Source of the DNA: a virus | Length of the DNA stretch: 64,000 nt | Direction: 5' to 3' (one strand) | IMG/VR virus record: IMGVR_UViG_3300027777_000028 | Span: 1-64,000 of that record | Shown: positions 2,260-21,242 of the stretch, piece after piece | Position numbering within the stretch: the first letter of the stretch is position 1 | How the letters are laid out: each line of letters begins with the position of its first letter | Translations under genes and position numbers: made by a program | Notes under the pieces: generated by a model | Databases searched by the model: none | What the model saw: the letters and a program-made list of their open reading frames with translations, nothing else | Told to the model about the DNA's origin: nothing

Positions 2260-3336
2260 ATGATACAAGGAATTAGAATAACAAGTACAAATTTATCAGG
2301 ACTAACGGCAAACGTTACTTTTTTACCCACAACTGGTGGAACTATTAATTTAGGATCTGAAGTAATACCATTTAATAATATTTCGGTTTATCCTTACGGA
2401 ACATACGAATTAGACGTTCAATTATATGATAGAATATACGAAATAGTTGTACCAGCACCGTTAACAGGTCAGAGCGCATATACTCAAACAGTAAGAGCGG
2501 TTACCGTTGACGGAGGAGCCCAACCATTTTCAGGAGCCGTATTATCTGAAGTGTGGGGAACATATACAACAGAATATATTACAAATGAAGGAATATCATC
2601 AACTGATATTGTTTTAGCTGAAGGTATTTGTTCTGATGATGTTGATGCTGCATATTTACCCGGAAATATCGGTGGATGGCCAACAAGTATTAATTCTTTC
2701 TTAGGACCATTTCAATCAGGAGGACTAGCAGGTTATCCGTTTGTTGGTAGTGTTGGATTTGGAGCATTTGCAAGTCACGTAGCAACAACTCTTGGTGGAA
2801 CTTTGTTTGTTACAAGTATGCCACACATTGGTGTTACTGAAGATGGTCGTTCAGGTAGAATGTTAAGAAGAGGTAAAGCAAATAGTTTAACCGATAATAC
2901 CTGTGGTGCCGTTGCGGGAGCAATTGACCAAGTTGTAAATCAACTAAGCTCACCTCCAGATCAAAATAACGCACCTTTTAATAATGAAAATTATTCTTTT
3001 TGGAAATTGACTGATATTTTATGGCCGTATAAAAATGTATTATCAGGTTTTACAGGTACTTCTGAAGAGATTTATAATAATCAAATGATATTTGCCACAG
3101 AAACTATTAGGGATTCAGCGTATGATTATATAATCGCAAATTTACCAGCAGCAACAACTGGAAACACCACAAATGATGTGTATTTTTTAAGTGGTATTTT
3201 TATTAATTCTGATGTTAGTTCCGGTACAACACAATTTGAGTCGTATGTCGTTGTTGATAAAGTCATGAAATATGAATATGGTATTGGGTGGAACAATATT
3301 ACTGTTAATTATATGTCCGGATTACCAATTGACTAA
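2260..3336 (+). CDS. Theta-class (LCIB/LCIC family) carbonic anhydrase domain fused to an N-terminal beta-rich virion-type module
   Basis: Motifs ICSDD (C124), FQSGGLAGYPFVGSVGFGAFASHV, PHIG (H189), GRMLRRG and TCGAV (C215) match the order of LCIB-family motifs, with the Cys-His-Cys Zn ligands intact. Confidence 0.85.
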   Translation: MIQGIRITSTNLSGLTANVTFLPTTGGTINLGSEVIPFNNISVYPYGTYELDVQLYDRIYEIVVPAPLTGQSAYTQTVRAVTVDGGAQPFSGAVLSEVWGTYTTEYITNEGISSTDIVLAEGICSDDVDAAYLPGNIGGWPTSINSFLGPFQSGGLAGYPFVGSVGFGAFASHVATTLGGTLFVTSMPHIGVTEDGRSGRMLRRGKANSLTDNTCGAVAGAIDQVVNQLSSPPDQNNAPFNNENYSFWKLTDILWPYKNVLSGFTGTSEEIYNNQMIFATETIRDSAYDYIIANLPAATTGNTTNDVYFLSGIFINSDVSSGTTQFESYVVVDKVMKYEYGIGWNNITVNYMSGLPID

Positions 3337-5521: not shown

Positions 5522-5549
5522 TATAAAACAAAACAAAAACTATATTTAT
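5518..5549 (+). promoter_or_regulatory. Putative promoter of the DNA polymerase gene
   Basis: TTGATA(5518-5523)-17 nt-TATATT(5541-5546), overlapping the recurrent TATTTAT motif (5543-5549). Confidence 0.55.
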
Positions 5550-5562
5550 TTACGAAGGTAAA

Positions 5563-5580
5563 TGCCGACCTAATTCGGTA
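5563..5580 (+). promoter_or_regulatory. 5'-leader hairpin upstream of polB (possible translational operator)
   Basis: TGCCGA-CCTAAT-TCGGTA forms a 6-bp stem (one G-U) 25 nt before the ATG, within otherwise A-rich sequence. Confidence 0.4.
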
Positions 5581-5605
5581 GCTAATACACCAAAAGTAAA
5601 TAATT

Positions 5606-8572
5606 ATGATATCACAAGAAGAAATAAAAAATTTCCTAGAAGGAAATGATCCAGAAAAATATATCGTTTCGGTCGAATACGATTACGTCACAGACAAAAT
5701 ATTCAAAATAAAAGAAGTTCCTGGTAAAGGAAAAGAAATTCAAAAGGACACCTTAATTTCATTCGCTTGGGTTGGTGATCTTCGTGGTCTAAACTTTTAT
5801 TCATCATCAAAAGGATTACAAAAAGAGGCCATGACAAAACATGGTATTATTATAGAAAAATTAAAAACCGAAAATAATGATCGTTTAAAACGAGGACTTA
5901 CATTTATGGTTAAATCTGTTAAAGGTTATAGAAACCTTATTCAGTTTTTTAGAGAAGGCGGAGTTGATCCTTGGGGTGAAAATGTTAAAGATTTGTTAAT
6001 GATATTACCTCCAGTCGAACAATATCTAATTTCAAAAGAAAAAAGATTATTCAAAGGGTTTGAAGAATATAATGATATTCTTAGAATGGTATTTGACCTT
6101 GAGACCACATCTTTAGAACCAAAAGATGGTAGGATCTTTATGATCGGAATTAAAACAAATAAAGGGTTTAAAAAAGTAATTGAATGCACAAATGCCGATG
6201 AAGAAAGAAGGGGATTAACAGAGTTTTTTCAAATAATTGACGACATAAAACCATCAATTATCTCGGGATATAACTCATTTAACTTTGACTGGCATTGGAT
6301 ATATGAAAGATGTAAGATTTTAAATCTTGATATTAAAAAAATTGCCAAGTCTTTAAACCCAAACAAATCAATCTCACAAAAAGATTCTATGTTGAAATTG
6401 GCAAATGAGGTTGAAAAGTTTAATCAAACTCAAATGTGGGGTTATAACATTATTGATATCTTACATTCAGTTCGTAGAGCACAAGCAATTAATTCAAACA
6501 TTAAAGAAGCGGGTCTTAAATATATCACAAAATATATCGAAGCAGAAGCTCCCGATCGTGTATATGTTGATCACGACAAAATTGGATCAATGTATCGAGA
6601 TAAAGAAGATTACTGGTTGAATATTGAAAATGGAAAATATAAAAAAGTTGGCACAGACTCCAAAGTTGATGATGTGTGTGAACGACATTCAAACATTTAT
6701 ATTAAAACAACGGGAGATAATATTATTGAGCGTTACTTGGACGATGACTTGGAAGAAACCCTTTTGGTTGACGAAGAATTCAATCAAGGATCATTTTTGT
6801 TGGCGTCCCTTCTTCCAACAACATATGAAAGGGTTTCAACAATGGGAACGGCAACATTATGGAAAATGTTAATGTTGGCTTGGTCTTATAAACATAATCT
6901 TGCAATACCAGCCAAAAACGATAAGGGGAACTTCGTGGGAGGACTTTCTCGTTTGATTAGAACAGGATACTCAAAGAATGTATTAAAACTCGACTACTCG
7001 TCTCTATACCCCTCCATTCAGTTGGTTCACGATGTGTTTCCTGATTGTGATGTGACAGGTGCAATGAAAGGTCTTTTAACTTATTTTAGAAATAGTCGTA
7101 TCAAATACAAACAACTCGCCGAAGAATATGCCTCTATTGATAAAAAGAAATCAACATCTTATGACCGTAAACAATTACCGATTAAGATCTTCATTAACTC
7201 GATGTTCGGTGCCCTTTCAGCCCCACAGGTATTTCATTGGGGTGATATGGATAAGGGTGAAATGATTACTTGCACAGGTCGTCAGTATCTTCGAATGATG
7301 ATTAACTTTTTTATGGATCGTGGATATACACCTCTTGTGATGGACACGGATGGTATTAACTTTTCGGTTCCTGAAGGTGTGGAAGAAAGACGTTATGTTG
7401 GTAAAGGTCTGAATTGGAAAGTTGTTGATGGTAAAGAATATATTGGTGAAGAGGCTGATGTAATGGAGTTTAACGATCTTGCGATGAGAGGTGAGATGGC
7501 TCTTGATACTGACGGACAATGGCCTGCGTGTATTAACTTGGCTCGTAAGAATTACGCTTTGATTACGGCAAAAGGTAAAATCAAACTTACAGGTAACTCA
7601 ATCAAATCTAAAAAAATGCCAATCTATATTGAGAAGTTTTTGGATAAAGGAATTAAATTACTTCTTGATGGTAAAGGACAAGAGTTTGTCGAGTGGTATT
7701 ATGAATACGTCCAACAGATATTTGACCTTCAAATTCCTTTGATGGATATTGCAAACAAAGCAAAAGTAAAACAAACCATCGATGATTATATAATTCGTAG
7801 TAAGCAAACAACAAAGGCGGGAAGTTTAATGTCTAGACAAGCACACATGGAATTGGCAATCAAAGAGGGGTTAAATGTAAATCTTGGTGATGTAATATTT
7901 TATGTTAATAATGGATCGAAAGCATCACACGGAGACGTTCAAAAAGTTAATAAACCAAAGAAAGGTTGGTCACAAGAACAAATTGATTTGTTTTTTTCGG
8001 ATAGTTTAAAAAGTAATTTAGATTACAAACAGAAAGAAAAATTTTTACTTAACAATGGTTGGGAAAAATCTTGGTCGGAAGATAACTGGGTACGTAGTGA
8101 TGCTAAAAACAAGGAGGCAAATACCGGAATACCAACAGATTTCGCCTATCGACTTAGTAGTACCGATTCAGTTATCCAACTAAATTGTTACCGAATTGAG
8201 CCATCTGATTTAGAAAATAACCCGACAATGAAAGGTCAATATAATATTCAAAGAGCAATTGCGACTTTTAATAAACGTGTAGAACCATTACTTGTTGTGT
8301 TTAAACAAGAAGTAAGAAATGGATTGTTGGTTAAGAATCCAGAAGACCGACCATTCTTCACAAAAGATCAATGTGAATTAATTAACGGACAACCATTTGA
8401 TGAAGGCGACCAAGACAAATTAGAAGACGTTATGGAAATTTCAGATGAGGAAATGTTATTTTGGAATCGTGTTGGTGAGACACCATATCACATGTATAAA
8501 AATGCTGATGATGTCATGTGGAAATATGTACCAAAAGAAGATTTAATCAAGTTTGAGACCATCGGAGGATAG
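5606..8572 (+). CDS. polB: Family B DNA polymerase with 3'-5' exonuclease
   Basis: ExoI FDLETTS, ExoII GYNSFNFDW, motif A LDYSSLYPSI, motif B KIFINSMFG, motif C MDTDG. Confidence 0.96.
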   Translation: MISQEEIKNFLEGNDPEKYIVSVEYDYVTDKIFKIKEVPGKGKEIQKDTLISFAWVGDLRGLNFYSSSKGLQKEAMTKHGIIIEKLKTENNDRLKRGLTFMVKSVKGYRNLIQFFREGGVDPWGENVKDLLMILPPVEQYLISKEKRLFKGFEEYNDILRMVFDLETTSLEPKDGRIFMIGIKTNKGFKKVIECTNADEERRGLTEFFQIIDDIKPSIISGYNSFNFDWHWIYERCKILNLDIKKIAKSLNPNKSISQKDSMLKLANEVEKFNQTQMWGYNIIDILHSVRRAQAINSNIKEAGLKYITKYIEAEAPDRVYVDHDKIGSMYRDKEDYWLNIENGKYKKVGTDSKVDDVCERHSNIYIKTTGDNIIERYLDDDLEETLLVDEEFNQGSFLLASLLPTTYERVSTMGTATLWKMLMLAWSYKHNLAIPAKNDKGNFVGGLSRLIRTGYSKNVLKLDYSSLYPSIQLVHDVFPDCDVTGAMKGLLTYFRNSRIKYKQLAEEYASIDKKKSTSYDRKQLPIKIFINSMFGALSAPQVFHWGDMDKGEMITCTGRQYLRMMINFFMDRGYTPLVMDTDGINFSVPEGVEERRYVGKGLNWKVVDGKEYIGEEADVMEFNDLAMRGEMALDTDGQWPACINLARKNYALITAKGKIKLTGNSIKSKKMPIYIEKFLDKGIKLLLDGKGQEFVEWYYEYVQQIFDLQIPLMDIANKAKVKQTIDDYIIRSKQTTKAGSLMSRQAHMELAIKEGLNVNLGDVIFYVNNGSKASHGDVQKVNKPKKGWSQEQIDLFFSDSLKSNLDYKQKEKFLLNNGWEKSWSEDNWVRSDAKNKEANTGIPTDFAYRLSSTDSVIQLNCYRIEPSDLENNPTMKGQYNIQRAIATFNKRVEPLLVVFKQEVRNGLLVKNPEDRPFFTKDQCELINGQPFDEGDQDKLEDVMEISDEEMLFWNRVGETPYHMYKNADDVMWKYVPKEDLIKFETIGG

Positions 8573-8890
8573 TATATACCATACTCCCTGAACATTTTGT
8601 AACTCTATACAAGCACCTTTACTAATTTCTAATTCGTCCCAATCTTCATCAATTCTGTTGAGATCAGGAATAATAGTACAATTTGTTAATGATTTAATAG
8701 TGATTTTATCTGTTGTTGTTGAATTAAGTTTTAATTTACAGTGTGAGACATCTTTAACAATAATTAAAATTTCACCATTTGTGGAATATGTAGGCTCACT
8801 TAAAATTATGGTTTCGAAGGTGTTTAAATTAACTGATCGACCTCCCCTAAATACTGTTTTTCTTGTTGGTGATTCTCTATGTATTGGCAT
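8543..8890 (-). CDS. Hypothetical small beta-rich protein, possibly virion-associated
   Basis: 115 aa, downstream of the neck gene; overlaps the polB 3' end convergently by 30 nt. Confidence 0.55.
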   Translation of the reverse strand: MPIHRESPTRKTVFRGGRSVNLNTFETIILSEPTYSTNGEILIIVKDVSHCKLKLNSTTTDKITIKSLTNCTIIPDLNRIDEDWDELEISKGACIELQNVQGVWYILSSDGLKLD

Positions 8891-8895
8891 AAAAA

Positions 8896-10023
8896 TTAAA
8901 TTACATATATTTGACGAGGCATTGCTCTAAACTTTAATTGTTTGTTAAGGTTTTCTGCCAACAATGCTTCTCTCTCCATTATTTTTTCAGGACGTAATCT
9001 TGTGAGTCTACCATCTGCCCCAATAAGTTCATCAATTAATTTAGTTTTTTCGTCTTTAGCCTCGGTTGATAAAGACGCATAATCCATTTGTAAATCACCA
9101 TCAGGTGCTTTTAAATTTCCACTGAATTTACCTCTAACTCTTGCCAACGTTTCTTTACAATATGCTGTAAACCATCTTCTAACCCAAATTTGTGCCGGAT
9201 TGTTTAACTTTTCCCAAGACATTTTATTAAATGGAACATCTGAAGGTAATAAAATGATATCAGGATTATCCGCCAAACATTTATCTCTGTCACCTTGTGA
9301 AGTGTCATAATACCAATACCAAACTTGACCCTTTGATAATTCTGCGTTACCAAAGTCAAATTTACCTCCAGGTGTATTTAAAAGGTGTAATGCTTTTTTA
9401 CCTTCAGGAAGTGCGGTTATATAATATGTTAAATCACCAGCATATATTCTTCTTTGTATGTTAACCTCTTGCATTCTTAGTAACGTATCAAAAGCCGGTG
9501 TTAAATAATAACTTCCTGCCATATTACCAATTTGTGCAAGTCCACCACCACCACCAAGGCCAGTTCCAATACCAACACCAGCAAAACCTCCTAAACCAAA
9601 CATAAGATTGTTAAGTGTTGATGGGGTAAACCATAATACTTCATTTATTTCACGACCTGCAGGTATTTCATAGATTTGTTGGTTAGGAACTAATTGTATA
9701 TAATCTTTTTTAATTTCCCAATCACCACCAGCTTGTAGACCAACAATTTTAGAATATGCGTAAGTATAACGAGTTTCAAAATCTAAACTTTTAGTAATGA
9801 AGGCTCTTGATAAAGATTGTGTGTCTAAATTTAAATTATATAGTGATGTCCATTGAGATTCGGTTAACCAATCCTGTACGTATTGTGAATAATCATCAAT
9901 AGAATACTCTAAAAGAGTGTCCATCATTTCATCCTCTAATTCTACTGATCTTAAAGGTGCTCCAAGTAAATGTCTAACTTTTTGATAGAATTTACTTCTT
10001 TCTGGTTCGTTGATAATTGCCAT
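8896..10023 (-). CDS. Neck/head completion protein (T4 gp13-like)
   Basis: N-terminal VRHLLGAPLRSVELEDEMMD resembles the gp13 LGAP..VE motif; C-terminal WVRRWFTAYCKETLARVRGKF is also gp13-like. Confidence 0.75.
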   Translation of the reverse strand: MAIINEPERSKFYQKVRHLLGAPLRSVELEDEMMDTLLEYSIDDYSQYVQDWLTESQWTSLYNLNLDTQSLSRAFITKSLDFETRYTYAYSKIVGLQAGGDWEIKKDYIQLVPNQQIYEIPAGREINEVLWFTPSTLNNLMFGLGGFAGVGIGTGLGGGGGLAQIGNMAGSYYLTPAFDTLLRMQEVNIQRRIYAGDLTYYITALPEGKKALHLLNTPGGKFDFGNAELSKGQVWYWYYDTSQGDRDKCLADNPDIILLPSDVPFNKMSWEKLNNPAQIWVRRWFTAYCKETLARVRGKFSGNLKAPDGDLQMDYASLSTEAKDEKTKLIDELIGADGRLTRLRPEKIMEREALLAENLNKQLKFRAMPRQIYVI

Positions 10024-10051
10024 AATAGTTTTTTATATAAATATCTTTTAA

Positions 10052-12196
10052 TTAGATAAATATTTTACCCAACTCATTTTTATAAAAACTTATCATTTCA
10101 AAAATTTCAGAATTTTCACCTTCTAACTCTTTTACCTTATCTGTGAAATATTGAATTCTTTCTTTATAAAATTCAATTTGTTTGTTAACATCTTTTGAAA
10201 TTGATTGTTTTACCGGTGTTTTTGGAGTTTCTTTTTGTGTTGGAACTTTAAAATTACTTTGTAATGGCATTTCATAATAATAGATAAAATATGGGGGTTG
10301 TTTTTTTGGATTACTTACCGTTAACATTTTATTGTGGTCATTTCTAAACATAATGTATTTTTGTTCTGATCTATCAACATACAACATTACATCAACATTT
10401 TCACCTTTATATTTATTTTGACTATTCCACGAAGCCACTTTAAAATAATATCCCCTATCTCCACCATCAAAAAATTTAATATCGTTATTTTGATTTAGAA
10501 ATGGTTTAACTTGAAAATAAATTGTTTCTTTTCCTTTTATTTTCAAAACTATGTCTTGTCCTTTTTTTCGATCGTTGATGTCTCCTGAACAATGTTCATA
10601 CAGTTCATAAGTTATTCCTTCTTCGTCAGGATTTAAGTTATATATTTGACGAATAATATTTTTAGCATAACTTTCATTTTCCTTACCAATCTCGATTGTT
10701 CCTATATTTGGTTCTGATAATCTATCTAAATACATTCCTTCGTTTGAAAACAAATCAAATGCTCGATCTTTAATCCATGTTTTAAAGTCGGACAAACCTT
10801 CAGTTTCTTCTAACCAAATATTATATATTTCTTTTTTAACTTTACTGTTTGTATCAAAACGATTAATTATAGACCACTGACTTGTTCCACCAAATTTTTT
10901 CTCAGCGTATTCACCTCCTAAAACTCCAACTTCTGTGTTACATTTTTTGGTTTCAATTTTACCTAAACAACCGTTTTTATATTGCTTCCCATAACAACCA
11001 ACATATTGGGAATGAATTAATTCTCTTAACTTTTTTGGTGTATATGGGAACGCAAAAGTTGTGCTAATTTCATTTATATTTTCTTTTTTATCAACACTTT
11101 CTTTAATATTTTTCTTTTTTGTATGAAGGTTATATAGTTCTTCAACAAACTCCCAGTTTACCACATTCCAAAAATTGTTAATATATTCGTCTCTTTTGTT
11201 TTGGTATTTTAAATAATAAGCATGTTCCCAAACATCTAATCCTAAAATTGGAAAACCACCTTTTTTAACAATGTTCATCAAAGGGTTATCTTGATTTGGT
11301 GTTGACATTATTTTTAATTTCCCATCTTTCGCAATATACAACCAAGCCCAACCTGATCCAAAACGATCTTTAGCCGCTTCGTTAAATTCGTCCTTCATTT
11401 TTTTAATATTCCCAAAATCTTCTTTGATTTTTTTTAGAATTTCCCCTTTTGGTATTTGTTTTTTTGGTGATAACATTTTCCAAAATAGAGCATGATTAAA
11501 AGAACCTCCAGCATTATTTCTGACCTTGTTATCAAATTTTGATATTGAACGAACAATTTCTTCTAAGTCCATATCTCCATCAATATTTTTTAATGATTTA
11601 TTAAGTTTGTCAACATACCCTTTGTAGTGTTTGTTGTAGTGGACATTCATTGTTTTTGAATCGATAAATCTTGACAAGGAAGAATAAGAATATGGTAATT
11701 TTTCAATACCAATTTTTTTCATTTCAATCAACAAATTTTCTTCAATGGTTTTTTTCTCATTAATTATTATCTGTTCATTAACTAAATTTATTTTACCCTG
11801 TATTCCTTTTTGTTCATACATCAATTCTTCCATTTCAGGATTTTCTTTTTCAAACATTTTAATAAGTCTTCCCGCAAACGCATTTGCTTCGTCTTCGTTT
11901 TGACCCCCAATGTCAGGACCTTTTTTTCTTTTTAACACATCCATTTGGTATTCGTGAACCCATTCGTGAGCTAATGTTCTCATAATGTCTCGATTCATTC
12001 GATCACCAACCAATACTTTTATTATATTATCTGACATTCTACTACCTGTTGACATTTCACCTTTTTGTTGATCTAAAAAAAATATTTTTACATCGTTTTT
12101 TAAAGGAAATTCTTTTTGCAGAAGTTTTGTAAACTTATTAACAAAGTCTGTGTATTTTTTAAAATCTTTATTTTCATAATTAAATGATACTTTCAT
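10052..12196 (-). CDS. sod: Multidomain protein: HExxH zincin-like domain + Fe/Mn (Mn-type) superoxide dismutase + putative PD-(D/E)xK-like domain
   Basis: SOD at aa ~159-357: LPYSYSSL, H186, NNAGGSFNH(235), FGSGWAWL, NQDNP, D321VWEH325AYY. N-terminal HEWVH...EDEANAFAG. C-terminal E...DRKKGQD...QVK. Confidence 0.9.
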   Translation of the reverse strand: MKVSFNYENKDFKKYTDFVNKFTKLLQKEFPLKNDVKIFFLDQQKGEMSTGSRMSDNIIKVLVGDRMNRDIMRTLAHEWVHEYQMDVLKRKKGPDIGGQNEDEANAFAGRLIKMFEKENPEMEELMYEQKGIQGKINLVNEQIIINEKKTIEENLLIEMKKIGIEKLPYSYSSLSRFIDSKTMNVHYNKHYKGYVDKLNKSLKNIDGDMDLEEIVRSISKFDNKVRNNAGGSFNHALFWKMLSPKKQIPKGEILKKIKEDFGNIKKMKDEFNEAAKDRFGSGWAWLYIAKDGKLKIMSTPNQDNPLMNIVKKGGFPILGLDVWEHAYYLKYQNKRDEYINNFWNVVNWEFVEELYNLHTKKKNIKESVDKKENINEISTTFAFPYTPKKLRELIHSQYVGCYGKQYKNGCLGKIETKKCNTEVGVLGGEYAEKKFGGTSQWSIINRFDTNSKVKKEIYNIWLEETEGLSDFKTWIKDRAFDLFSNEGMYLDRLSEPNIGTIEIGKENESYAKNIIRQIYNLNPDEEGITYELYEHCSGDINDRKKGQDIVLKIKGKETIYFQVKPFLNQNNDIKFFDGGDRGYYFKVASWNSQNKYKGENVDVMLYVDRSEQKYIMFRNDHNKMLTVSNPKKQPPYFIYYYEMPLQSNFKVPTQKETPKTPVKQSISKDVNKQIEFYKERIQYFTDKVKELEGENSEIFEMISFYKNELGKIFI

Positions 12197-12197
12197 G

Positions 12198-12623
12198 TTA
12201 TCTTGGAGTGAAGAAAATTGGATATGACTCCATTACTTTTATACCTAATTGAGTGGTATATGTAACTTTAGCTTTATAATAACCCTCAACTGTTGCTGTG
12301 TAACTACTGTAAATTGCTTCAGAAATAACTTCAGATTCCAAATACCATTCCCAAACTGTAGACGTAACCATAATTGGAAATTGGGTTGGAGTCATTGCAT
12401 AAAAAGTGTCATGGTCTAAATTCACATATAATGAATTTCCAAAAACCAAACTTAATACTGTTGATTTTAAATCATCTATTTGTCCTTGTAGATTTATATC
12501 TACTTGATCGTTTTGAGAATCTTCTGAAGAAATTTTAGCTTCTAAAGATACGTCTATTAAATCCAGTGATTGTATTTCTTCTGGTAATCCATCAATTTGA
12601 CTTTGATCTAATTTTGTTGGCAT
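12198..12623 (-). CDS. Putative virion fibre/decoration protein (coiled coil + Ig-like C-terminus)
   Basis: Heptad segment LQGQIDDLKS, then the Ig-like strand pattern WEWY...SSYTATVEGYYKAKVTY. Confidence 0.45.
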   Translation of the reverse strand: MPTKLDQSQIDGLPEEIQSLDLIDVSLEAKISSEDSQNDQVDINLQGQIDDLKSTVLSLVFGNSLYVNLDHDTFYAMTPTQFPIMVTSTVWEWYLESEVISEAIYSSYTATVEGYYKAKVTYTTQLGIKVMESYPIFFTPR

Positions 12624-12643
12624 AATTTATTTTTAAATAAATA

Positions 12644-14410
12644 TCACCTTCTATTGATTAGTTTTAATATTTCTTCAGCAATATCACCACCACTTTCTTG
12701 AATTTCATCACCCATCACGGTTCTGATTATTTGTTTTTTCTTATTTAGAATGTCGTAAATTGCTCCCTCGATTGTATTTTCAAACAAAGGATAATAAACA
12801 AGGACATTTGATTTTTGACCATAACGATATGCTCTATCCTCGGCTTGTGCGTGTTCTGCAGGAACAAAAGATAGGTCGTTCATAATAACTGCTTCTGCGG
12901 ATGTCAATGTTAAACCAACACCTGCCGCCTTCAAATTTCCAACAAAAACTTTAATTTTTTCATCATTTTGAAAAGAGTCAACTGCTTGCTGTCTAAATGA
13001 ATTAGAACAACTACCATCAAGATAAACCGCATGTTTTCCAAAGTGATGATATATTGTTTGGAGTGTATCCGTAAAGTTTGTGAATATAATAACTTTTTTT
13101 CCTTGATCTATAATGTTTTCAGCAAACTCTATTGTTTGTCTTGTTTTTTCATTTGCAATTACTTTTCTAACTTTCATCAACTTTGAAAACTGAACCGTAA
13201 GTGATGAAGACTCATCGGGGTTTTTATCATACCAATCATAATAATCACCCATAAGTTCCTCATATTCTTTTGATTTTAATCTCAAATAAACGGGAGTAAT
13301 AATTTTATCAGGTAAATCTAAAACGTCTTCTTTTAATCTTCTAAGAATTTGTTTTGATGTTCGGTCTCTTAATTCCTCCAAGTTTGACGCTCCCGACACA
13401 TTCCAAACTTTTCTTTTTCCTGCCGTAAATTGAAATCCCTGACAATAACGAATCGCATATGCTTTCCAATTTTGAGCAACAGGACTTTCAATAATATTTA
13501 ATAAGTTATAATAGTTCATAGGACGAGATGTCATTGGTGTTCCCGTTAATAACCAAACTTTATCTATGTTTTTAACAAAACTATTTATGATTTTAGTTCT
13601 TTGAGCCTGTGCGTTAGAAATCATATGTGCTTCGTCCAATATTACCAAATCAAAATTGCTTTGAATTAATAAAGACTCTTCTTTCTTTTTGGGATCTGAG
13701 TCGTGGAAATTTTTTAAAATATCATAATTAACAATAACAAAATCAGATTCTGTTGAAAATTTCTTGCCTTCCGCAATAAAAATGGATCTATTAGAATAAT
13801 TTTCAATTTCACGTTGCCAATTAATCTTTAATGATGCTGGACAAATAATTAAGATTTTTTTAGATCCCGTTTCTAAAGCCGCAATGATAGTAGAAGTTGT
13901 CTTGCCTAAGCCCATGTCGTCCGCCAATATAAATCTTTTTGACCCTGTTAGTTTTTCAATTGCAATTTTCTGATGTTCAAGCGGAGGACGATGTGAATAC
14001 TTCGAATAATCAATAGTGACTGATTGAACATTGTGTGTTTTTATTAATGATGATTTTGGAATCCAAAATTCAGATAGTTTATCGTTTTCAAAAAACTTAG
14101 CCCAAACATGATATGATTTTTCTTTTTCTACCAATAATTTTTCAATATAAATTTGATCAGGTGTTTTTAACAAACATTTTTCTTCTGAAAACTTTTTAGC
14201 AAAATAAGTGTCCAACTCAACCCATTTTCGAGCAACTTTTGGTACTGAATCAAAATAATTTATAATATAATCTGCTTGAGTTCTTGTAGGATAAAATTTT
14301 GAAGAGGATTCTTTCTTATTTTTTAGGTATAAGATATAGTTATTCGAACCACTATATGTGTCTAGTAGTTCAAGGGCCTTATGTTCAACAAGAGACTTTT
14401 TGTTTTCCAA
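12644..14410 (-). CDS. SNF2-family (SMARCAL1/ZRANB3-like) helicase
   Basis: LADDMGLGKT, DEAH, LLTGTP, GVGLTL, QAEDRAYRYGQ. Likely TTG start at 14410. Confidence 0.92.
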   Translation of the reverse strand: MENKKSLVEHKALELLDTYSGSNNYILYLKNKKESSSKFYPTRTQADYIINYFDSVPKVARKWVELDTYFAKKFSEEKCLLKTPDQIYIEKLLVEKEKSYHVWAKFFENDKLSEFWIPKSSLIKTHNVQSVTIDYSKYSHRPPLEHQKIAIEKLTGSKRFILADDMGLGKTTSTIIAALETGSKKILIICPASLKINWQREIENYSNRSIFIAEGKKFSTESDFVIVNYDILKNFHDSDPKKKEESLLIQSNFDLVILDEAHMISNAQAQRTKIINSFVKNIDKVWLLTGTPMTSRPMNYYNLLNIIESPVAQNWKAYAIRYCQGFQFTAGKRKVWNVSGASNLEELRDRTSKQILRRLKEDVLDLPDKIITPVYLRLKSKEYEELMGDYYDWYDKNPDESSSLTVQFSKLMKVRKVIANEKTRQTIEFAENIIDQGKKVIIFTNFTDTLQTIYHHFGKHAVYLDGSCSNSFRQQAVDSFQNDEKIKVFVGNLKAAGVGLTLTSAEAVIMNDLSFVPAEHAQAEDRAYRYGQKSNVLVYYPLFENTIEGAIYDILNKKKQIIRTVMGDEIQESGGDIAEEILKLINRR

Positions 14411-14470
14411 ACTTAATCTTTTATAAAAGATAATCAATAATTGTATATTTATCAAGAAAAACCATTTCGT

Positions 14471-14983
14471 ATGAAGAATAATGTGCCAATAACAAGATTA
14501 GGAAAATTTTTTGGGGATCGTGATTTTGAGTTGGAAATTGAAATGGGTCAAGAATGGTTAATTGGTGATATGAACTATACTTGTGTATTGTATAGAATTG
14601 ATAGAAATAAAATTAAAACTGATGATGTTTACGGTGAAGTGGTTGAAGATGGTATTAAATTTTTACCCCCCGTTGAGTTTAATGCTTATGTAGGGATTGC
14701 TGGACCTGAAAATAAATTACTTGGGGCAACAAAATTGGATCAAGTAGAACCAGGAAATATTACAATGTCAGTTTACTTAAAAACTTTAAATGATCTTAAT
14801 ATCGATATAGATTTTGGGGATTATGTAGGATACTATGATAGTGAAAACTTTGTTAGATATTATACCGTAGTAAATGATGGTCGTGTTATTTCAGATATAA
14901 AACATACTTACAAAGGTTTCAAACCCTTTTACCGTAGTATTATTGGGGCTCCTGTTGGACCAAATGAATTTAGGGGATTATAA
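14471..14983 (+). CDS. Neck/head-closure protein (T4 gp14-like)
   Basis: DDVYGE motif, GDYV/YYTV beta pattern and position ahead of the terminator and sheath genes; ATG at 14471. Confidence 0.6.
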   Translation: MKNNVPITRLGKFFGDRDFELEIEMGQEWLIGDMNYTCVLYRIDRNKIKTDDVYGEVVEDGIKFLPPVEFNAYVGIAGPENKLLGATKLDQVEPGNITMSVYLKTLNDLNIDIDFGDYVGYYDSENFVRYYTVVNDGRVISDIKHTYKGFKPFYRSIIGAPVGPNEFRGL

Positions 14984-14999
14984 ATTAATAAAATTAATA

Positions 15000-16037
15000 A
15001 TGGCATTACCAAAACAAGTTAAACCGACATTACCTTTAACGTACCCCAAGACTCTTTTACCGAGAAGGGAACAAATAAAGGACATGATTACTAAGGATGG
15101 GACTTACCTACCTAAGTCATTACTTCATGCGGATCTTGATGGTGGATTTTTGGATTTTGTGAAGGAAAAATTTAATATTGTTTCTGAAGGAAAAAAAATA
15201 CCCGTAGTTGATATTTTAATAACAACACAAAATTGGTCTCAATTTGTTGAAACGTGGGATTTTCAAAACATTGATAAAAATATTGAGCCACCATTTTTAG
15301 CAATTATAAGAAATCCGGAAGTTAAATATGGAAATAACCCTGCGGTTATGTATAACATACCTGTTAGAAGAATGTATTATTACATGGAAATTCCAACTTG
15401 GGATGGAAATAGAAAAGGTGCCGACATTTATAAAATACCACAACCAGTTCCGATTGATTTAAAGTATACGGTAGCAATTGTATGTAATAGAATGAGAGAA
15501 GCAAATACCTTAAATCAAAGAGTTATGGAAACATTTGCATCAAGACAAGCATACCAAACAATTAACGGACATTACATTCCAATAATTAATGACTCGTTTT
15601 CTGATGAATCTGTTTTGGATTTAGAAAAAAGAAAATACTATATTCAAAAATATGATTTTACTATGATGGGGTTTTTGATTGATGAAGAACAATTCGAAGT
15701 GTCTCCTGCCATTAATAGAACTTTTCAAATGTTTGAAGTAGATACTCGTCCTGTTAAAAGACCACAGAAAAAACAAGATCCAGTTCAGTTAGGTTCAGTT
15801 ACTTTAGAATATCCAAATAGTGCAACAACAATGGAATATTATTTTGATTATGTGTGTAATTTATTTTTTGAAAACAGCACAAACATTCAAGACTATTCTG
15901 TTTACATCAATGATAATTATTATGGTGATAATGTTGATTTTATTCAAATAAATAATGGTGATACTTTAAGAATTGAAATTTCAATTGGGTTAACAAATGA
16001 AACACCAATTTTGGTATATACAAGAAAACTTATTTAA
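15000..16037 (+). CDS. Tail terminator/sheath stabiliser (T4 gp15-like)
   Basis: PQPVPIDLKYTVAI...YDFTMMGFL resembles gp15; lies between neck and sheath genes; ATG at 15000. Confidence 0.6.
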   Translation: MALPKQVKPTLPLTYPKTLLPRREQIKDMITKDGTYLPKSLLHADLDGGFLDFVKEKFNIVSEGKKIPVVDILITTQNWSQFVETWDFQNIDKNIEPPFLAIIRNPEVKYGNNPAVMYNIPVRRMYYYMEIPTWDGNRKGADIYKIPQPVPIDLKYTVAIVCNRMREANTLNQRVMETFASRQAYQTINGHYIPIINDSFSDESVLDLEKRKYYIQKYDFTMMGFLIDEEQFEVSPAINRTFQMFEVDTRPVKRPQKKQDPVQLGSVTLEYPNSATTMEYYFDYVCNLFFENSTNIQDYSVYINDNYYGDNVDFIQINNGDTLRIEISIGLTNETPILVYTRKLI

Positions 16038-16198
16038 ATTTCTCCGTATATATCTTTCTTATCTTTACACTTTTCCATTATTAGATTTTCTAAAAATTTA
16101 TACATTTTAATACCCCTCTTATCACAATACTTTTTTAAGACATCATGAACTTTGGCGTCTATTTTTAGATTTTTTATTGTTTTAACATCTTTATCCAT
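16034..16198 (-). CDS. Small ribbon-helix-helix (CopG/Arc-like) DNA-binding protein
   Basis: KNLKIDAKVHDVLKKYCDKRGIKMYKFLENLI beta-alpha-alpha pattern; has its own upstream TATTTAT on the minus strand. Confidence 0.6.
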   Translation of the reverse strand: MDKDVKTIKNLKIDAKVHDVLKKYCDKRGIKMYKFLENLIMEKCKDKKDIYGEI

Positions 16199-16279
16199 AG
16201 TGGTAGAAAAAAGGCAGAATAAAATCATACCAACATATAAATACTTTTTATTATGTAAAGTTTTTGATAAAAACCAAAG

Positions 16280-16286
16280 TATTTAT
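16280..16286 (+). promoter_or_regulatory. TATTTAT putative phage promoter motif (sheath copy, representative of 16)
   Basis: Also at + 2223, 5543, 14446, 19728, 20635, 22152, 24064, 36564, 41054, 44624, 45523, 47895, 57330 and - 10037-10043, 12637-12643, 16237-16243; each is oriented with the downstream gene. Confidence 0.65.
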
Positions 16287-16319
16287 AGTAAAAATAAATA
16301 ATTAAAAGTATTTTACAAT

Positions 16320-19300
16320 ATGGCAACTAACAGTAAGGTTTTTGTTTCGCCCGGTGTGTATACTTCTGAAGTTGACTTAAGCTTTGTAGCCCAAAGTGTC
16401 GGTGTAACTACATTAGGTATAGTTGGTGAAACTTTATTAGGTCCAGCTTTTGAACCTATTTTCATTACAAATTTCACAGAATTTGAAAGCGTATTTGGAC
16501 CAACGTCCCCAGAAAAATTCGTAAACACTCAAATTCCAAAATACGAAGCATCGTATATCGCTAAAGCTTATTTACAACAATCTAACCAATTGTTTGTTAC
16601 AAGAATTCTTGGTTTATCAGGATATGATGCAGGACCATCTTGGTCTGTAACAACTGTGGCTAACGTAGATCCATCAACAATTGGTGTTTGGTGTTTAAGT
16701 TCAGTTACGGATTATACAACTTGTGAAACTACTTGTGTTACTCCTAAAGAATTAACATTTACAGTTCCTTTTACCGCATGTACAAACTCTGTAACAACAA
16801 TCGGATATAACGCTAATTTCCCTGATGAAATTCAAGATATTCTTTTCACTCAATTTGAACAATTCAATGGATCAACGTCCACATTAGATTCACAAATCAG
16901 AAACTTAATTTTTGATGTAATAACTGATTCTAATCCATATATGGCGGAAGATGAATACATTTCATATTTTGGTTCAATAGACACTCAAGATTATAATACC
17001 TTAGAAGGTGCGGGATGGACAGCGGCAACTAATGTGTTTAATGTTCCTTCAGTTTCACTTGATGATACAAGTTTAACATCGCCATTAAATGATGCTTGGT
17101 ATTACGCTTTATTTACAAACACAGGAAATACTCACTACAGTGGTTATTCATTCTTTACTTATGTTTCAGGTTTGACTGCTTATTATCCTAACCCTACACC
17201 AACACCACAAGCAACAGCGTCTCCAACGCCAACTCCTTCATTTGTAAATCCTTGTATTACACCTTCACCATTTACATCACCAACACCAACTCCTACACCT
17301 GTTAATATCGATTGTTATTCAGGAACTATTGTTGGTAAAATTTATTACTATACAGGTACTTCATATGTTAATTATGATAATGTAGTTGTTGGAACATTAA
17401 GATCAAGAGGTATTTCAACTTATACAAACGCAACTAACCCAACATATTCAGTAACAGGAACATCTGACGTAACACTTAATATGACTGGACAATATTCGGC
17501 AGTATTGAAAAATCCTTATTCTACATTTGGTGTAAATGTAATTGATAAGTTTGGAACAAGTTATTCATTTGAAACTTCTTTTACACAAAATGATCCGGAA
17601 TATTGGTCAAAAGTATTTGGTGTTTCCAATTTCCAAAAACCAAGAATTGAAGTTCCAGTATTTGCTGAAGAAAACTTCCAGTCATGGTTAAATTACTCTT
17701 GGAAAAAAGGTTACATTAGAGGTTTAAATCCTAATTTAATTGCTCTTGACTCAGCTCAAAGTGGTGATCCAAATTCAATTGGTTGGTATTTAGATAAATG
17801 GCAAACACCAGTTTCACCTTTTGTTGTTTCAGAATTAAGAGGTAATAAAGTTTATGACCTATTTAGATTCTATACAGTTTCTGACGGTGACGCAGCAAAC
17901 ACATTGATTAAAATTTCAATTATTAATCAATCATATAATAACTTAACGTTTGATGTATTGATTCGTAGCTATTTTGATACAGATGCAAATCCTGTTGTTC
18001 TTGAGAAATTTACTAATTGTGCTATGGATCCGGGACAAAATAACTTTATCGGAAATAAAATTGGTACATTAGACGGAGAATACGCACTTAACTCAAGATA
18101 TGTAATGGTTGAGATGAGTGAAGATGCTCCAATCGACACACTACCTTGTGGATTCAACGGATTTAACTTTAGAAATTACGCAGGAGCTAATTCACCATTC
18201 CCAATTATCAAAGGAAAATATGATTTCCCTGGTGAAGTTATTTATAACCCACCATTTGGTTTATCTTCAGGAAATGATGATGCACTTACAAGTCCAGGTG
18301 ATAATGTAAGAAGAACTTATTTAGGTATTTCAAATTCTTATGGATGGGATCCAGCGTTCTTTGAATATGTCGGTAAAAGAAACCCAATTAATTCTTGTGA
18401 TATTGATGGTCTTCCATTTAATTATAGATCTGAAGGTTTCCACATGGACGTAAACGCAAGTGGTTTAACGATCGGACCTGAGTTTTCTACAAGTGGTGAA
18501 CCAAGATTTGTTTGTGGTAATTCATCATTCCTTACAGAACCTGAATCACCTACAAATGCTTATTACAGATTATTCGCACGTAAATTCACATTCTTAGTTC
18601 AAGGTGGATTTGATGGATGGGATATTTACAGAGAATGGAGAACAAATACTGACGAATATCAAATTGGTAGAAGAGGATTCCTTAACGGAGCTTGTCCATC
18701 ATCAAGATATCCTACCGCAGTTGGTTGGGGAGCATTTAAAGAAATTTCTTTGGGTGACGGTACACAAAATTTTGCTAACACCGACTACTACGCATACTTG
18801 TTAGGACAACAAACATTCGCTAACCCTGAAGCAACAAACATTAACGTTTTTGTTACACCTGGTATTGATTATGTAAATAACAGTAATTTGGTTGAGGATG
18901 CGGTTCAAATGATTGAATTCAACAGAGCAGATTCACTTTATGTTTGTACAACTCCTGACTACGACTTATATTTACCAACAACAACCGGTATTGATGGGTT
19001 TATCTACCCTACAGAAGCGGTTAATAATTTGGAAACCACAGGAATTGACTCAAACTATACGGCTACTTACTATCCGTGGGTATTGACAAGAGATAGTGTA
19101 AATAACACTCAAATCTACATTCCACCTACGGCTGAGGTAACAAGAAACTTAGCCTTGACAGATAACATCGCGTTCCCTTGGTTCGCAGCGGCGGGTTACA
19201 CTCGTGGTATTGTTAATTGTATCAAAGCTCGTAAGAAACTAACACAAGAAGATAGAGATACTCTTTATGTTGGTAGAATTAACCCAATTGCGACTTTCTC

Positions 19301-19670
19301 TGATGTTGGTACTGTAATTTGGGGTAATAAAACTCTACAAGTTAGAGAATCCGCTCTTGATAGAATTAACGTAAGAAGATTATTATTACAAGCACGTAAG
19401 TTGATTTCAGCAGTATCTATTAGATTGTTGTTTGAACAAAACGACGCACAAGTTAGACAAGACTTCTTAAACGCTGTTAATCCAATCTTAGATGCCATTA
19501 GAAGAGACCGTGGTTTATATGACTTCCGTGTAACCGTTTCGTCTTCTCCTGAAGATTTAGATAGAAACCAATTAACAGGAAAAATCTATATCAAACCTAC
19601 AAGAGCTCTTGAATTTATTGATATTACTTTCTACATCACTCCAACAGGAGCGTCGTTTGAAAATATCTAA
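16320..19670 (+). CDS. Contractile tail sheath protein (gp18-like) with large insertions
   Basis: N-terminal SPGVYTSEVDLS; C-terminal PWFAAAGYTRG, INPI, WGNKTL, RINVRRLL, IKPTRALEFIDITF. Confidence 0.96.
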   Translation: MATNSKVFVSPGVYTSEVDLSFVAQSVGVTTLGIVGETLLGPAFEPIFITNFTEFESVFGPTSPEKFVNTQIPKYEASYIAKAYLQQSNQLFVTRILGLSGYDAGPSWSVTTVANVDPSTIGVWCLSSVTDYTTCETTCVTPKELTFTVPFTACTNSVTTIGYNANFPDEIQDILFTQFEQFNGSTSTLDSQIRNLIFDVITDSNPYMAEDEYISYFGSIDTQDYNTLEGAGWTAATNVFNVPSVSLDDTSLTSPLNDAWYYALFTNTGNTHYSGYSFFTYVSGLTAYYPNPTPTPQATASPTPTPSFVNPCITPSPFTSPTPTPTPVNIDCYSGTIVGKIYYYTGTSYVNYDNVVVGTLRSRGISTYTNATNPTYSVTGTSDVTLNMTGQYSAVLKNPYSTFGVNVIDKFGTSYSFETSFTQNDPEYWSKVFGVSNFQKPRIEVPVFAEENFQSWLNYSWKKGYIRGLNPNLIALDSAQSGDPNSIGWYLDKWQTPVSPFVVSELRGNKVYDLFRFYTVSDGDAANTLIKISIINQSYNNLTFDVLIRSYFDTDANPVVLEKFTNCAMDPGQNNFIGNKIGTLDGEYALNSRYVMVEMSEDAPIDTLPCGFNGFNFRNYAGANSPFPIIKGKYDFPGEVIYNPPFGLSSGNDDALTSPGDNVRRTYLGISNSYGWDPAFFEYVGKRNPINSCDIDGLPFNYRSEGFHMDVNASGLTIGPEFSTSGEPRFVCGNSSFLTEPESPTNAYYRLFARKFTFLVQGGFDGWDIYREWRTNTDEYQIGRRGFLNGACPSSRYPTAVGWGAFKEISLGDGTQNFANTDYYAYLLGQQTFANPEATNINVFVTPGIDYVNNSNLVEDAVQMIEFNRADSLYVCTTPDYDLYLPTTTGIDGFIYPTEAVNNLETTGIDSNYTATYYPWVLTRDSVNNTQIYIPPTAEVTRNLALTDNIAFPWFAAAGYTRGIVNCIKARKKLTQEDRDTLYVGRINPIATFSDVGTVIWGNKTLQVRESALDRINVRRLLLQARKLISAVSIRLLFEQNDAQVRQDFLNAVNPILDAIRRDRGLYDFRVTVSSSPEDLDRNQLTGKIYIKPTRALEFIDITFYITPTGASFENI

Positions 19671-19688
19671 ATTTATCAGATCATAAAT

Positions 19689-19718
19689 AAGGGGGGAACA
19701 TTAGTTCCCCTTTTTTTT
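19689..19718 (+). terminator. Rho-independent terminator after the sheath gene
   Basis: GGGGAAC-ATTA-GTTCCCC followed by T8. Confidence 0.85.
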
Positions 19719-19738
19719 AATTTAAGATATTTATTGTT

Positions 19739-20569
19739 ATGAATTACAAAAATTTTGTAAAAGATATAATTACAGAAATTATTAGTGATCAATTAAAACC
19801 AACAATGAAGTATTATGCTTTTGATTGGGATGATAATCTAATGTATATGCCGACCAAAATTTATTTGAAAGACGATAAAGGAAAAAGTGTTGGTATGTCA
19901 ACTGAAGATTTTGCAGAATACAGAACTGAAATTGGTAAAGAACCTTTTAATTACAAAGGACACAAGATTGTTGGTTTTGACGACGAAGCTTTTAGAGATT
20001 TTAGAGTTCATGGTGATAAAGAATTTGTTAAAGACTCTATAAAATCTCCAACAGGACCTTCTTGGAATGATTTTGTTGAGGCGGTCAATGATGGGTCTAT
20101 ATTTTCGATTATCACAGCAAGAGGTCACACCCCTAGTGTTTTAAAAAATGCTGTTTATAATTTAATTAAAAAGAATAAACACGGGTTAAACGAAAAAACT
20201 ATTGTTAAAAATCTTAAAAAATATAGAGATCTTGCAGATGAAGACGAATTATCTGATGATGATATTATTAGATATTACTTAGATATGTGTAAATTTTATC
20301 CTGTAACGTTTGGTCAGGGTTCTGCTGCTAATCCCGAACAATTAAAGGTGGATGCAATGAGAGAGTTTATGTCTTATGTTCAAAAACTTTCTAGACAACT
20401 GCAAGAAAAGGCATTTATGAAAAACAAAATCAGTAATTATTTTATACCTTATATTGGTTTTTCTGATGATGATTTAAGAAATGTTCAAATTATGAGAAAG
20501 AATTTTGATGATGAAGATGAATTAAAAATTTATCATACTAGTAAGGAAGGTAAAACTAAATATGAATAA
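19739..20569 (+). CDS. HAD-superfamily phosphatase-like protein
   Basis: Motif I AFDWDDNL, motif II IITARG, conserved Lys (QLKV), motif IV GFSDDD. Confidence 0.75.
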   Translation: MNYKNFVKDIITEIISDQLKPTMKYYAFDWDDNLMYMPTKIYLKDDKGKSVGMSTEDFAEYRTEIGKEPFNYKGHKIVGFDDEAFRDFRVHGDKEFVKDSIKSPTGPSWNDFVEAVNDGSIFSIITARGHTPSVLKNAVYNLIKKNKHGLNEKTIVKNLKKYRDLADEDELSDDDIIRYYLDMCKFYPVTFGQGSAANPEQLKVDAMREFMSYVQKLSRQLQEKAFMKNKISNYFIPYIGFSDDDLRNVQIMRKNFDDEDELKIYHTSKEGKTKYE

Positions 20570-20676
20570 CTGGTCTAGTTAATAGATTATTTAAAAAAAA
20601 ACAGAAGTAAATAGAAAAATTTTTAATAAGATACTATTTATAATAAAAATAAAACAAAAAACTAAAAAAAAACAAT

Positions 20677-21165
20677 ATGGCTGATTTATTAATGAAAATG
20701 CCAATCCCTTATGAACCGAAAAGGGAGAACCGATGGATACTTAGATTTCCGTCGTCACTTGGGATCAATGAGTGGTATGTTGAAACAACGTCAAGACCAA
20801 AACTTACAATTGCTTCGACAGAGATTCAGTTTTTGAATACTTCAACTTATGTTGCTGGTCGTTTCACTTGGGGAGAGTTACCTGTAACATTTAGAGATCC
20901 AATTGGACCTTCTGCGTCTCAAGCGGTTATGGAATGGATTCGTTTATGTGCTGAGTCAGTAACAGGACGTATGGGTTATGCTGCGGGATACAAGAAAAAT
21001 GTTGATCTTGAAATGTTAGACCCAACAGGTGTTGTTGTTGAAAAATGGATTTTAGAAGGAACTTTCCTTTTAGGATATGATGGGGGATCATTAACATATT
21101 CATCAGATGGTGTAGCAAAAATAAGTTGTCAGATGAGAATGGACCGTTGTATATTGGTTTATTAA
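20677..21165 (+). CDS. Tail tube protein (gp19-like)
   Basis: YEPKRENRWIL, YVAGRFTW, YKKNVDLEMLDPTG..VEKWILEG; 162 aa, downstream of the sheath. Confidence 0.9.
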   Translation: MADLLMKMPIPYEPKRENRWILRFPSSLGINEWYVETTSRPKLTIASTEIQFLNTSTYVAGRFTWGELPVTFRDPIGPSASQAVMEWIRLCAESVTGRMGYAAGYKKNVDLEMLDPTGVVVEKWILEGTFLLGYDGGSLTYSSDGVAKISCQMRMDRCILVY

Positions 21166-21242
21166 TCACATATATTTTTTTTATTTAAGAATTAAATGTT
21201 TACTAACAATAACATATTCTTATTTTTATTATAAAAAATAAT

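Follow-up and report, generated by a model that had tools for sequence, protein, structure and literature searches.

The locus and its three-module gene

The DNA analysed here (hereafter the window) comprises positions 1 to 64,000 of the viral record IMGVR_UViG_3300027777_000028, a 98-kb fragment estimated to be 34% complete. The window is AT-rich (guanine plus cytosine content of ~31%) and its gene content is that of a large myophage, with very large proteins of the baseplate or fibre region encoded in addition to the genes listed in Table 1. Our subject is a single open reading frame (ORF) of this window, the product of which joins a zincin-like module (N module), a Fe/Mn superoxide dismutase (SOD) and a nuclease-like C-terminal module (C1), separated by two linkers. 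The presence of three domains in one ORF had been proposed in a preliminary description of this stretch and is borne out by comparison with metagenomic sequences. A homologue search returned 1304 matches of 392-1250 amino acids (aa) to the fusion protein, and an intact ORF of 700-716 aa is present on over 100 independent contigs (drawn from JGI, ENA, Logan and NCBI), the full-length homologues displaying 52-99% identity and residing on contigs of up to 290 kb (some of 270-290 kb). The gene is therefore a genuine three-module fusion conserved at full length in more than 100 metagenomic relatives; an assembly chimera, which the preliminary description had named among the outcomes that would undo its reading, is excluded by the recurrence of full-length homologues on so many independent contigs. 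The whole fusion protein has no match in PHROGs, and our literature search found no publication describing a zincin-SOD-C1 fusion.

The same modules are found in many other arrangements. In addition to zincin+SOD+C1, we observed the zincin alone, zincin+SOD (362-365 aa), SOD-first forms and forms with inserted repeats of ~110 aa, and zincin+SOD is also joined to at least three other unrelated C modules; a Pfam search with these alternative C modules and the repeat modules gave nothing. In another lineage (P0347-P0350, P0354-P0360), the SOD is embedded in multi-domain proteins of 1250-1640 aa, where it is again flanked by [LI]xE motifs (Leu or Ile, any residue, Glu); some of these proteins carry Zeta_toxin and AAA_33 domains, and their N-termini end in ..LLE or ..LTE. 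The preliminary description had asked whether related phages carry the domains as separate or shuffled genes with similar linkers: at this locus modules are freely swapped, split and duplicated, some standing alone, and an [LI]xE site is kept after the SOD. In one relative (L123:5001-7145), the fusion gene is split within the N-SOD linker region into ORFs of 190 aa and 506 aa; a frameshift or an error in sequencing could account for this, or the split could be natural.

Three modules, two of them outside curated families

The SOD is the module that is most readily assigned. Pfam domains Sod_Fe_N (PF00081) and Sod_Fe_C (PF02777) match residues 165-243 (1e-19, 71.2 bits versus a cut-off of 27) and 249-353 (2e-41, 140.6 bits versus a cut-off of 20.9), respectively, and the closest solved structures are bacterial MnSODs, the best being 6gsc (2.8e-65). 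All four metal ligands (H186, H235, D321 and H325) are in place, as are the second-sphere residues G230-G231 and Q302-D303, the latter within an NQD motif, in agreement with what the preliminary description had read from the sequence. A GG pair before the second His together with a Gln in the C-terminal domain constitutes the rule by which Fe/Mn SODs are assigned to the Mn type, and the module is accordingly predicted from its residues to be an intact, Mn-type enzyme. Profile searches with the N and C modules against the PDB sequences yielded nothing beyond the SOD, and the two modules found nothing in Pfam even at E values of 1-10.

For the N module, the preliminary description had recognised a metalloprotease-like HEWVH...E pattern, an assignment upheld by the structural comparisons. 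The AlphaFold 2 (AF2) model, built from an alignment of 36 homologues, has a mean predicted local distance difference test score (pLDDT) of 89. In the VIA exhaustive structural comparison it matches 1oz9 (YbeY-like; Z 10.1), the M30 peptidase lugdulysin (Z 9.7), catalytic domains of M1 aminopeptidases (Z 9.2-9.6) and Wss1 (Z 8.8), with a further match at Z 9.1, and almost all of the top 50 matches are zincins; the best Foldseek match is likewise Wss1 (E 0.012). The HEWVH motif occupies residues 77-81 and NEDEAN residues 100-105. H77-E-x-x-H81 is invariant and is followed, 20 residues beyond H81, by E101 of G97-G-Q-N-E101, which starts the helix 99-118; we take this spacing to be that between the second His and the Glu ligand of thermolysin. 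An M78-like affiliation, also suggested initially, was not supported: Pfam searches with residues 1-160 at E<=1 produced no match to M78, SprT-like or MPTase-PolyVal, and only traces below the cut-off were seen (SprT-like, E 0.047, in one relative; DUF6055, ~1e-3). Given the fold matches and the invariant HExxH and GGxNE spacing, we regard the modelled N module as a minimal gluzincin-like hydrolase with an intact active-site motif, outside curated families. It is widespread as a stand-alone gene (377 matches of 128-129 aa, 55-66% identity). A stand-alone homologue that is annotated as hypothetical and is 32% identical is encoded by Synechococcus phage S-SRM01 (L083, record 164797-165195) and offers a possible experimental handle.

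The C1 module (aa 380-714) has no Pfam family match, and the ESM Atlas provided a weak lead, with PDDEXK_5 on 11% of the members of the rank-6 cluster (score 0.83). Its AF2 model is confident (pLDDT 89, predicted template modelling score 0.80). The fold searches, which essentially cover the core and barely sample the Cys-rich subdomain at aa 380-490, retrieved I-Ssp6803I (2ost) with Foldseek (E 3e-3, probability 1.0) and I-Ssp6803I, Hjc and NhoI with VIA (Z 6.7, 6.0 and 5.9, respectively); the scores are modest and the best matches all belong to the PD-(D/E)xK superfamily. The pattern of Asp, Gly, Gln and Lys residues noted at the outset is present as D542-x3-G546-x-D548 ... Q562-V-K564. Invariant residues include E508 on a long helix, D548 where a β-strand begins and Q562-x-K564 on the strand that follows it, such that the second acid of the PD-(D/E)xK site is replaced by an invariant Gln. 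A minimal PD-(D/E)xK site consists of two acids and one Lys (PMC3384342), and C1 possesses these in E508, D548 and K564, with Q562 at the position of the second acid. The initial suggestion of a PD-(D/E)xK domain is therefore supported by the best fold matches and weakened by the lack of a Pfam match, the low Z scores and the substitution of Q562 for an acid, and C1 might possibly bind DNA only. We consider aa 380-714 to represent a new family with a PD-(D/E)xK-like core. The family comprises 71 clusters at 50% identity and occurs alone (~320-390 aa), as SOD+C1 without the zincin, and twice within one protein; a structural match at 16% identity was found in a 501-aa UniProt entry from an uncultured phage, named superoxide dismutase (A0A6J5L953).

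Conserved [LI]xE sites at the module boundaries

The T4 protease gp21 cuts after L/I-X-E (PMC9026906). The hydrophobic-x-Glu motifs picked out in the preliminary description (LVNE, IINE, TIEE, LLIE, NIKE and NINE) are all present in the fusion protein, and 5 of its 12 [LI]xE sites fall within the two linkers, which account for ~8% of its length. Among 34 non-redundant full-length relatives, E366 and E376 of the SOD-C linker are invariant and are preceded two residues earlier by L/I in 31/34 and 34/34 sequences, respectively, while the flanking columns have entropies of 1.6-3.0 bits. Since this linker is predicted to be disordered (pLDDT below 50), such conservation is not explained by packing. 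On the other side of the SOD, E128 and E158 are invariant in the same relatives, E141 is conserved in 32/34 and E147 in 28/34.

The site after the SOD is maintained irrespective of what follows it. All 122 members with anything downstream of the SOD (122/122) have an [LI]xE Glu 17-23 residues past the NWxFV anchor, against a background of 19% per 13-aa window, and these members span at least five different downstream modules and include distant SOD-first forms. Gene ends coincide with the same boundaries: N+SOD genes stop 2-5 residues ahead of the first post-SOD site, and the stand-alone zincins of 128-129 aa terminate at ..MYE, equivalent to the invariant E128 of the fusion.

Leader peptides and the head protease of a close relative

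The motif reappears at the N-termini of free modules. Approximately 10 of the 22 stand-alone C1 homologues begin with a leader of the MKIIITE, MKIRINE or MKFVITE kind, the strict form of which is found in 0.76% of 662 background ORFs. In the relative L147, the fused copy of a 147-aa module is preceded by ..NIITE/NQSDKIN, and three free copies start with MKIIITE/NQSDKIN. These three are tandem genes (L147:6607-7962, plus strand), and the gene that precedes them carries the same repeat module in fusion with zincin-SOD.

A fuller genomic context is available for G001, a contig of 272.6 kb (93% complete) that is collinear with positions 5541-21648 of the window at 83-87% nucleotide identity and carries a copy of the fusion gene that is 83% identical. 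Its head module follows the T4 order: Portal_T4 (2.6e-76), then three small ORFs and the prohead protease, which matches Peptidase_S77 (1e-22, 81 bits) and is encoded at L081:14047-14775 (minus strand), and lastly an acidic scaffold-like protein of 507 aa and the Gp23 capsid protein (2.8e-73). The scaffold-like protein carries SLKES, SINES and NLIES, and Gp23 contains ..FLINE/A near residue 60, a position similar to that of the maturation site in T4 gp23.

In G001, at least 13 ORFs with no other relationship to one another start with MK-I-I-I-T-E-x-Q. Their codons vary synonymously, a pattern which points to selection on the leader peptide, and the whole looks like a genome-wide leader-plus-cargo system; no publication describing such a system was found in our literature search. 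Examples are the ORFs at 34441-35028, 35028-35378, 236607-236939 and 237417-237836 of this contig (which corresponds to L163-L175, L081 and L082), and several of the leader ORFs have a TATTTAT motif just upstream.

Neighbouring genes and expression class

The position of the locus is fixed across relatives, between the SNF2 helicase gene on one side and the conserved 375-aa gene plus a 115-aa gene on the other; the cargo is the variable part, and the locus as a whole is hypervariable and modular. The features of the locus and of its surroundings are collected in Table 1.

Table 1. Position and basis of assignment of the features of the fusion gene and neighbouring genes in the window
Feature	Position	Strand	Basis or remark
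Fusion ORF, 714 aa, 82 kDa (zincin - linker - MnSOD - linker - C1)	10052..12196	minus	Full-length homologues
N module, aa 1-128, predicted minimal zincin (gluzincin-like)	11813..12196	minus	AF2 model, fold comparison, invariant columns
N-SOD linker, aa 129-161	11714..11812	minus	One long predicted helix; hydrophobic-x-E at E141, E147, E158
Fe/Mn superoxide dismutase, aa 162-357, Mn-type signature	11126..11713	minus	Pfam, 6gsc, residues
SOD-C linker, aa 358-379	11060..11125	minus	Predicted disordered; NIKE/S (E366), NINE/I (E376)
C1 N-subdomain, aa 380-490, Cys-rich	10727..11059	minus	C-x8-C-x9-C, conserved W-S-x-x-N-R-F-D-T-N; invariant columns
PD-(D/E)xK-like core, ~aa 491-650	10247..10726	minus	Fold matches; invariant E, D, Q, K columns
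C-terminal helical hairpin, aa 661-714	10055..10216	minus	Semi-conserved [LI]xE at E690, E700
141-aa ORF	12198..12623	minus	Stop codon separated by a single base from the fusion ATG
TATTTAT promoter-like motif	12637..12643	minus	Upstream of the 141-aa ORF adjoining the fusion gene
Conserved 375-aa gene (downstream)	8896..10023	minus	Weak, partial PHROG match: head-tail adaptor (neck) protein
PolB-type DNA polymerase	5606-8572
SNF2 helicase	12644-14455
Tail sheath, 1116 aa	16320-19670

The 141-aa ORF, which has no family match and is absent from the corresponding spot in many relatives, is probably co-transcribed with the fusion gene. Its insertion at this point, with the helicase on one side and the fusion gene on the other, is confined to the window's lineage; the matching stretch of G001 cannot be aligned, so that this is a second variable spot of the locus. 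Of 61 distinct relatives, 53 have a TATTTAT motif at -12 relative to the ATG of the fusion gene itself. In the window the motif also precedes the sheath gene and many genes of the tail, tube and baseplate regions, and the downstream 375-aa gene has a TATTTAT of its own at 10037-10043; we infer that the motif marks late transcription.

Two further observations concern genes other than the fusion. A 358-aa protein with a Pfam match to LCIB_C_CA (theta/LCIB-type carbonic anhydrase; 5.6e-29) is encoded at 2260-3336 (plus strand) of the window, among fibre-region genes and with a TATTTAT motif ahead of it. In the relative L147, the SNF2 helicase encoded ahead of the fusion (L147:2603-4972, plus strand) is 789 aa long and has an apparent intein-like insertion, with a LAGLIDADG-type block immediately ahead of the helicase Walker A motif.

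A precursor of head cargo?

Taken together, these data suggest a reading to which we give about an even chance, namely that the fusion is a late-expressed head cargo of a T4-like jumbo myophage, cut by the S77 prohead protease into three enzymes. It provides the simplest account of the invariant linker Glu residues, of the agreement between these sites and the module ends, of the leaders that free modules carry and of the S77 protease of the lineage. According to this scheme, the precursor would be incorporated into the prohead, where the gp21-like Peptidase_S77 would cut after the conserved Glu of [LI]-x-E in both linkers, and perhaps in the C-terminal hairpin too, releasing the zincin, the SOD and C1 as separate proteins of ~128, ~208 and ~340 aa, respectively. 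The products would then travel with the DNA into the host. The SOD would presumably remove superoxide in the vicinity of the incoming or the packaged DNA, and the zincin and the nuclease-like module would presumably act on host or DNA targets. Packaging, cleavage, delivery and the roles of the three enzymes in the host are all inferred from the sequence features described above.

A cleaved polyprotein had already been envisaged in the preliminary description, and the invariant linker Glu, the disordered SOD-C linker, the sites found in 122/122 members, the boundary matches and the S77 protease of G001 all speak for it, if indirectly. Several observations, however, weigh against it. The fusion protein lacks a T4-style N-terminal targeting sequence, since its N-terminus is a strand (residues 3-7) of the zincin fold and its first [LI]xE lies beyond residue 140. 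Nor do the linkers score significantly as leaders: compared with a position-weight profile built from ten G001 leaders, they do not rise above shuffled sequences (best -0.6 versus a shuffle median of 1.7), and we therefore do not claim that they are leader copies. The 12 [LI]xE sites of the protein are close to the ~9 expected from composition, and the comparison of relatives is the stronger evidence. The SOD-C linker is predicted to be disordered; the N-SOD linker is predicted to be helical and tells us less, and amphipathic helices rich in K, E, I and L yield [LI]xE by composition. Because the sequences compared are homologous, their conserved sites do not count as independent events. Searches of cultured-phage records, at both the DNA and protein levels, returned SOD-only matches and the one stand-alone N domain of S-SRM01, and no fusion; this S-SRM01 gene lies between those for a pyrophosphatase and a cytidyltransferase, within the replication cluster of that phage, a T4-like cyanophage available in culture. 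Finally, the 98-kb record from which the window derives has no Peptidase_S77 match and no strict-leader ORF, although the former is accounted for by the record being a 34% fragment without the head module.

Some of these observations would also suit a multi-domain late enzyme that stays uncleaved in the cytoplasm and serves as a DNA-associated antioxidant or repair enzyme. C1 and the zincin would then tether or complement a SOD whose task is to limit oxidative damage to DNA during its replication or packaging, and the linkers would act as spacers. The helical N-SOD linker and the replication-cluster setting of the S-SRM01 zincin would fit such an enzyme, as would the resemblance of the zincin fold to, among others, the Wss1/SprT DNA-protein crosslink proteases (Z 8.8) and the presence of Q562 at a position usually taken by a catalytic Asp or Glu. 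Moreover, the SOD-C1 pairing recurs down to 16-40% identity (P0281, P0289, P0298, P0303 and A0A6J5L953), which suits functional cooperation. We nevertheless consider this explanation unlikely, as it leaves unexplained an invariant Glu with L/I at -2 in a variable, disordered linker, the same motif as an N-terminal leader on stand-alone modules, and the free swapping, splitting and duplication of modules at the locus.

Cleavage might alternatively be performed by the protein itself, its N-terminal zincin cutting the linkers before or after delivery as in a self-processing polyvalent protein. The active site of the zincin is fully conserved, and in the polyvalent proteins of phages and plasmids the hub domain is a zincin MPTase, which has been proposed to release the other domains (PMC5512222). 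Nonetheless, forms without the zincin (P0088, P0117, P0281 and P0289) keep the same sites, leader-bearing modules stand alone with no zincin in cis, the motif is the known specificity of the S77 protease that the lineage encodes, and no Pfam MPTase-PolyVal match was found; self-processing seems to us less likely still. As to separate genes having been joined by an artefact of assembly or gene calling, the split gene of L123 could be cited in its favour, yet the recurrence of the intact ORF refutes it and leaves it a negligible probability.

If the fusion is indeed packaged and cut as head cargo, it would reveal a phage polyprotein strategy for virion cargo and would extend the T4 paradigm of capsid targeting from a few small internal proteins to large modular enzyme fusions. 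Superoxide dismutase would then count as an effector that is delivered, and not simply as an auxiliary metabolic gene. A still broader proposal, which we advance tentatively and with some doubt, is that T4-like jumbo phages living in lakes may join cassettes of leader plus cargo into polyproteins that the capsid maturation protease cuts inside the head. One gene would in that event supply several injected enzymes, among them a Mn-SOD that would be the first phage-delivered antioxidant enzyme, its target being the incoming genome or those host responses for which reactive oxygen is required. Packaged and injected proteomes could then be read from sequence through the grammar of [LI]xE boundaries. 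Virion-packaged Cu,Zn-SODs are known from giant eukaryotic viruses, and we found no virion-packaged phage SOD in the full-text literature. Even if the fusion protein is not packaged, two families absent from Pfam have been delimited, each of them backed by a confident model and by the conservation of its catalytic residues. The first is the 128-aa zincin, of which phage contigs encode hundreds of free-standing copies, and the second is the nuclease-like C1 module.

Comparison with known systems

At the level of single modules, the phage SOD is ~48% identical to bacterial MnSODs (6gsc, 5a9g) over the entire SOD fold and shares with them the four ligands and the Mn-type residues; unlike them, it has another module on each side, connected to it by a leader-like linker. 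The C1 core has in common with the nucleases I-Ssp6803I and Hjc a long helix with a Glu, followed by three strands carrying D and x-K, and departs from them in the Gln in place of the second acid, the extra Cys-rich N-subdomain and the helical hairpin, with Z scores of only 6-6.7.

As a whole, the fusion invites comparison with the polyvalent proteins of phages and conjugative elements (Iyer et al. 2017, PMC5512222), which likewise join unrelated enzymatic domains to a zincin metallopeptidase and are expected to serve as early-phase effectors delivered with the DNA and freed by proteolysis. The word 'superoxide' appears nowhere in the main text of that survey (PMC5512222). The zincin of the fusion, on the other hand, lacks a Pfam MPTase-PolyVal match, and a prohead protease is a more plausible processor than the zincin. 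In phiKZ-like giant phages, head and inner-body proteins are cut at S/A-X-E by a gp21 homologue (PMC9026906). There too, cleavage after Glu affects many head proteins, and the sites in the propeptide regions are redundant; the P3 preference is different, the lineage is unrelated and a SOD cargo is not reported there.

The closest parallel is the head cargo of T4. This phage loads unrelated internal proteins through N-terminal propeptides of 10-19 aa that are removed by the protease, and Alt is trimmed at both ends (PMC9026906). Similarly to T4 with its IPI-III and Alt (PMC9026906), the lineage of the fusion has a T4-type head module with Peptidase_S77, as seen in G001, conserved [LI]-x-E at the module boundaries, module relatives with short shared leaders ending in the motif, a hypervariable and modular locus, and a late-type upstream motif. 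It differs from T4 in that the fusion itself has no N-terminal leader, that the leader of the lineage, MKIIITE-x-Q, is unlike that of T4, and that the fusion would string several cargo modules, a SOD among them, into one precursor with internal sites.

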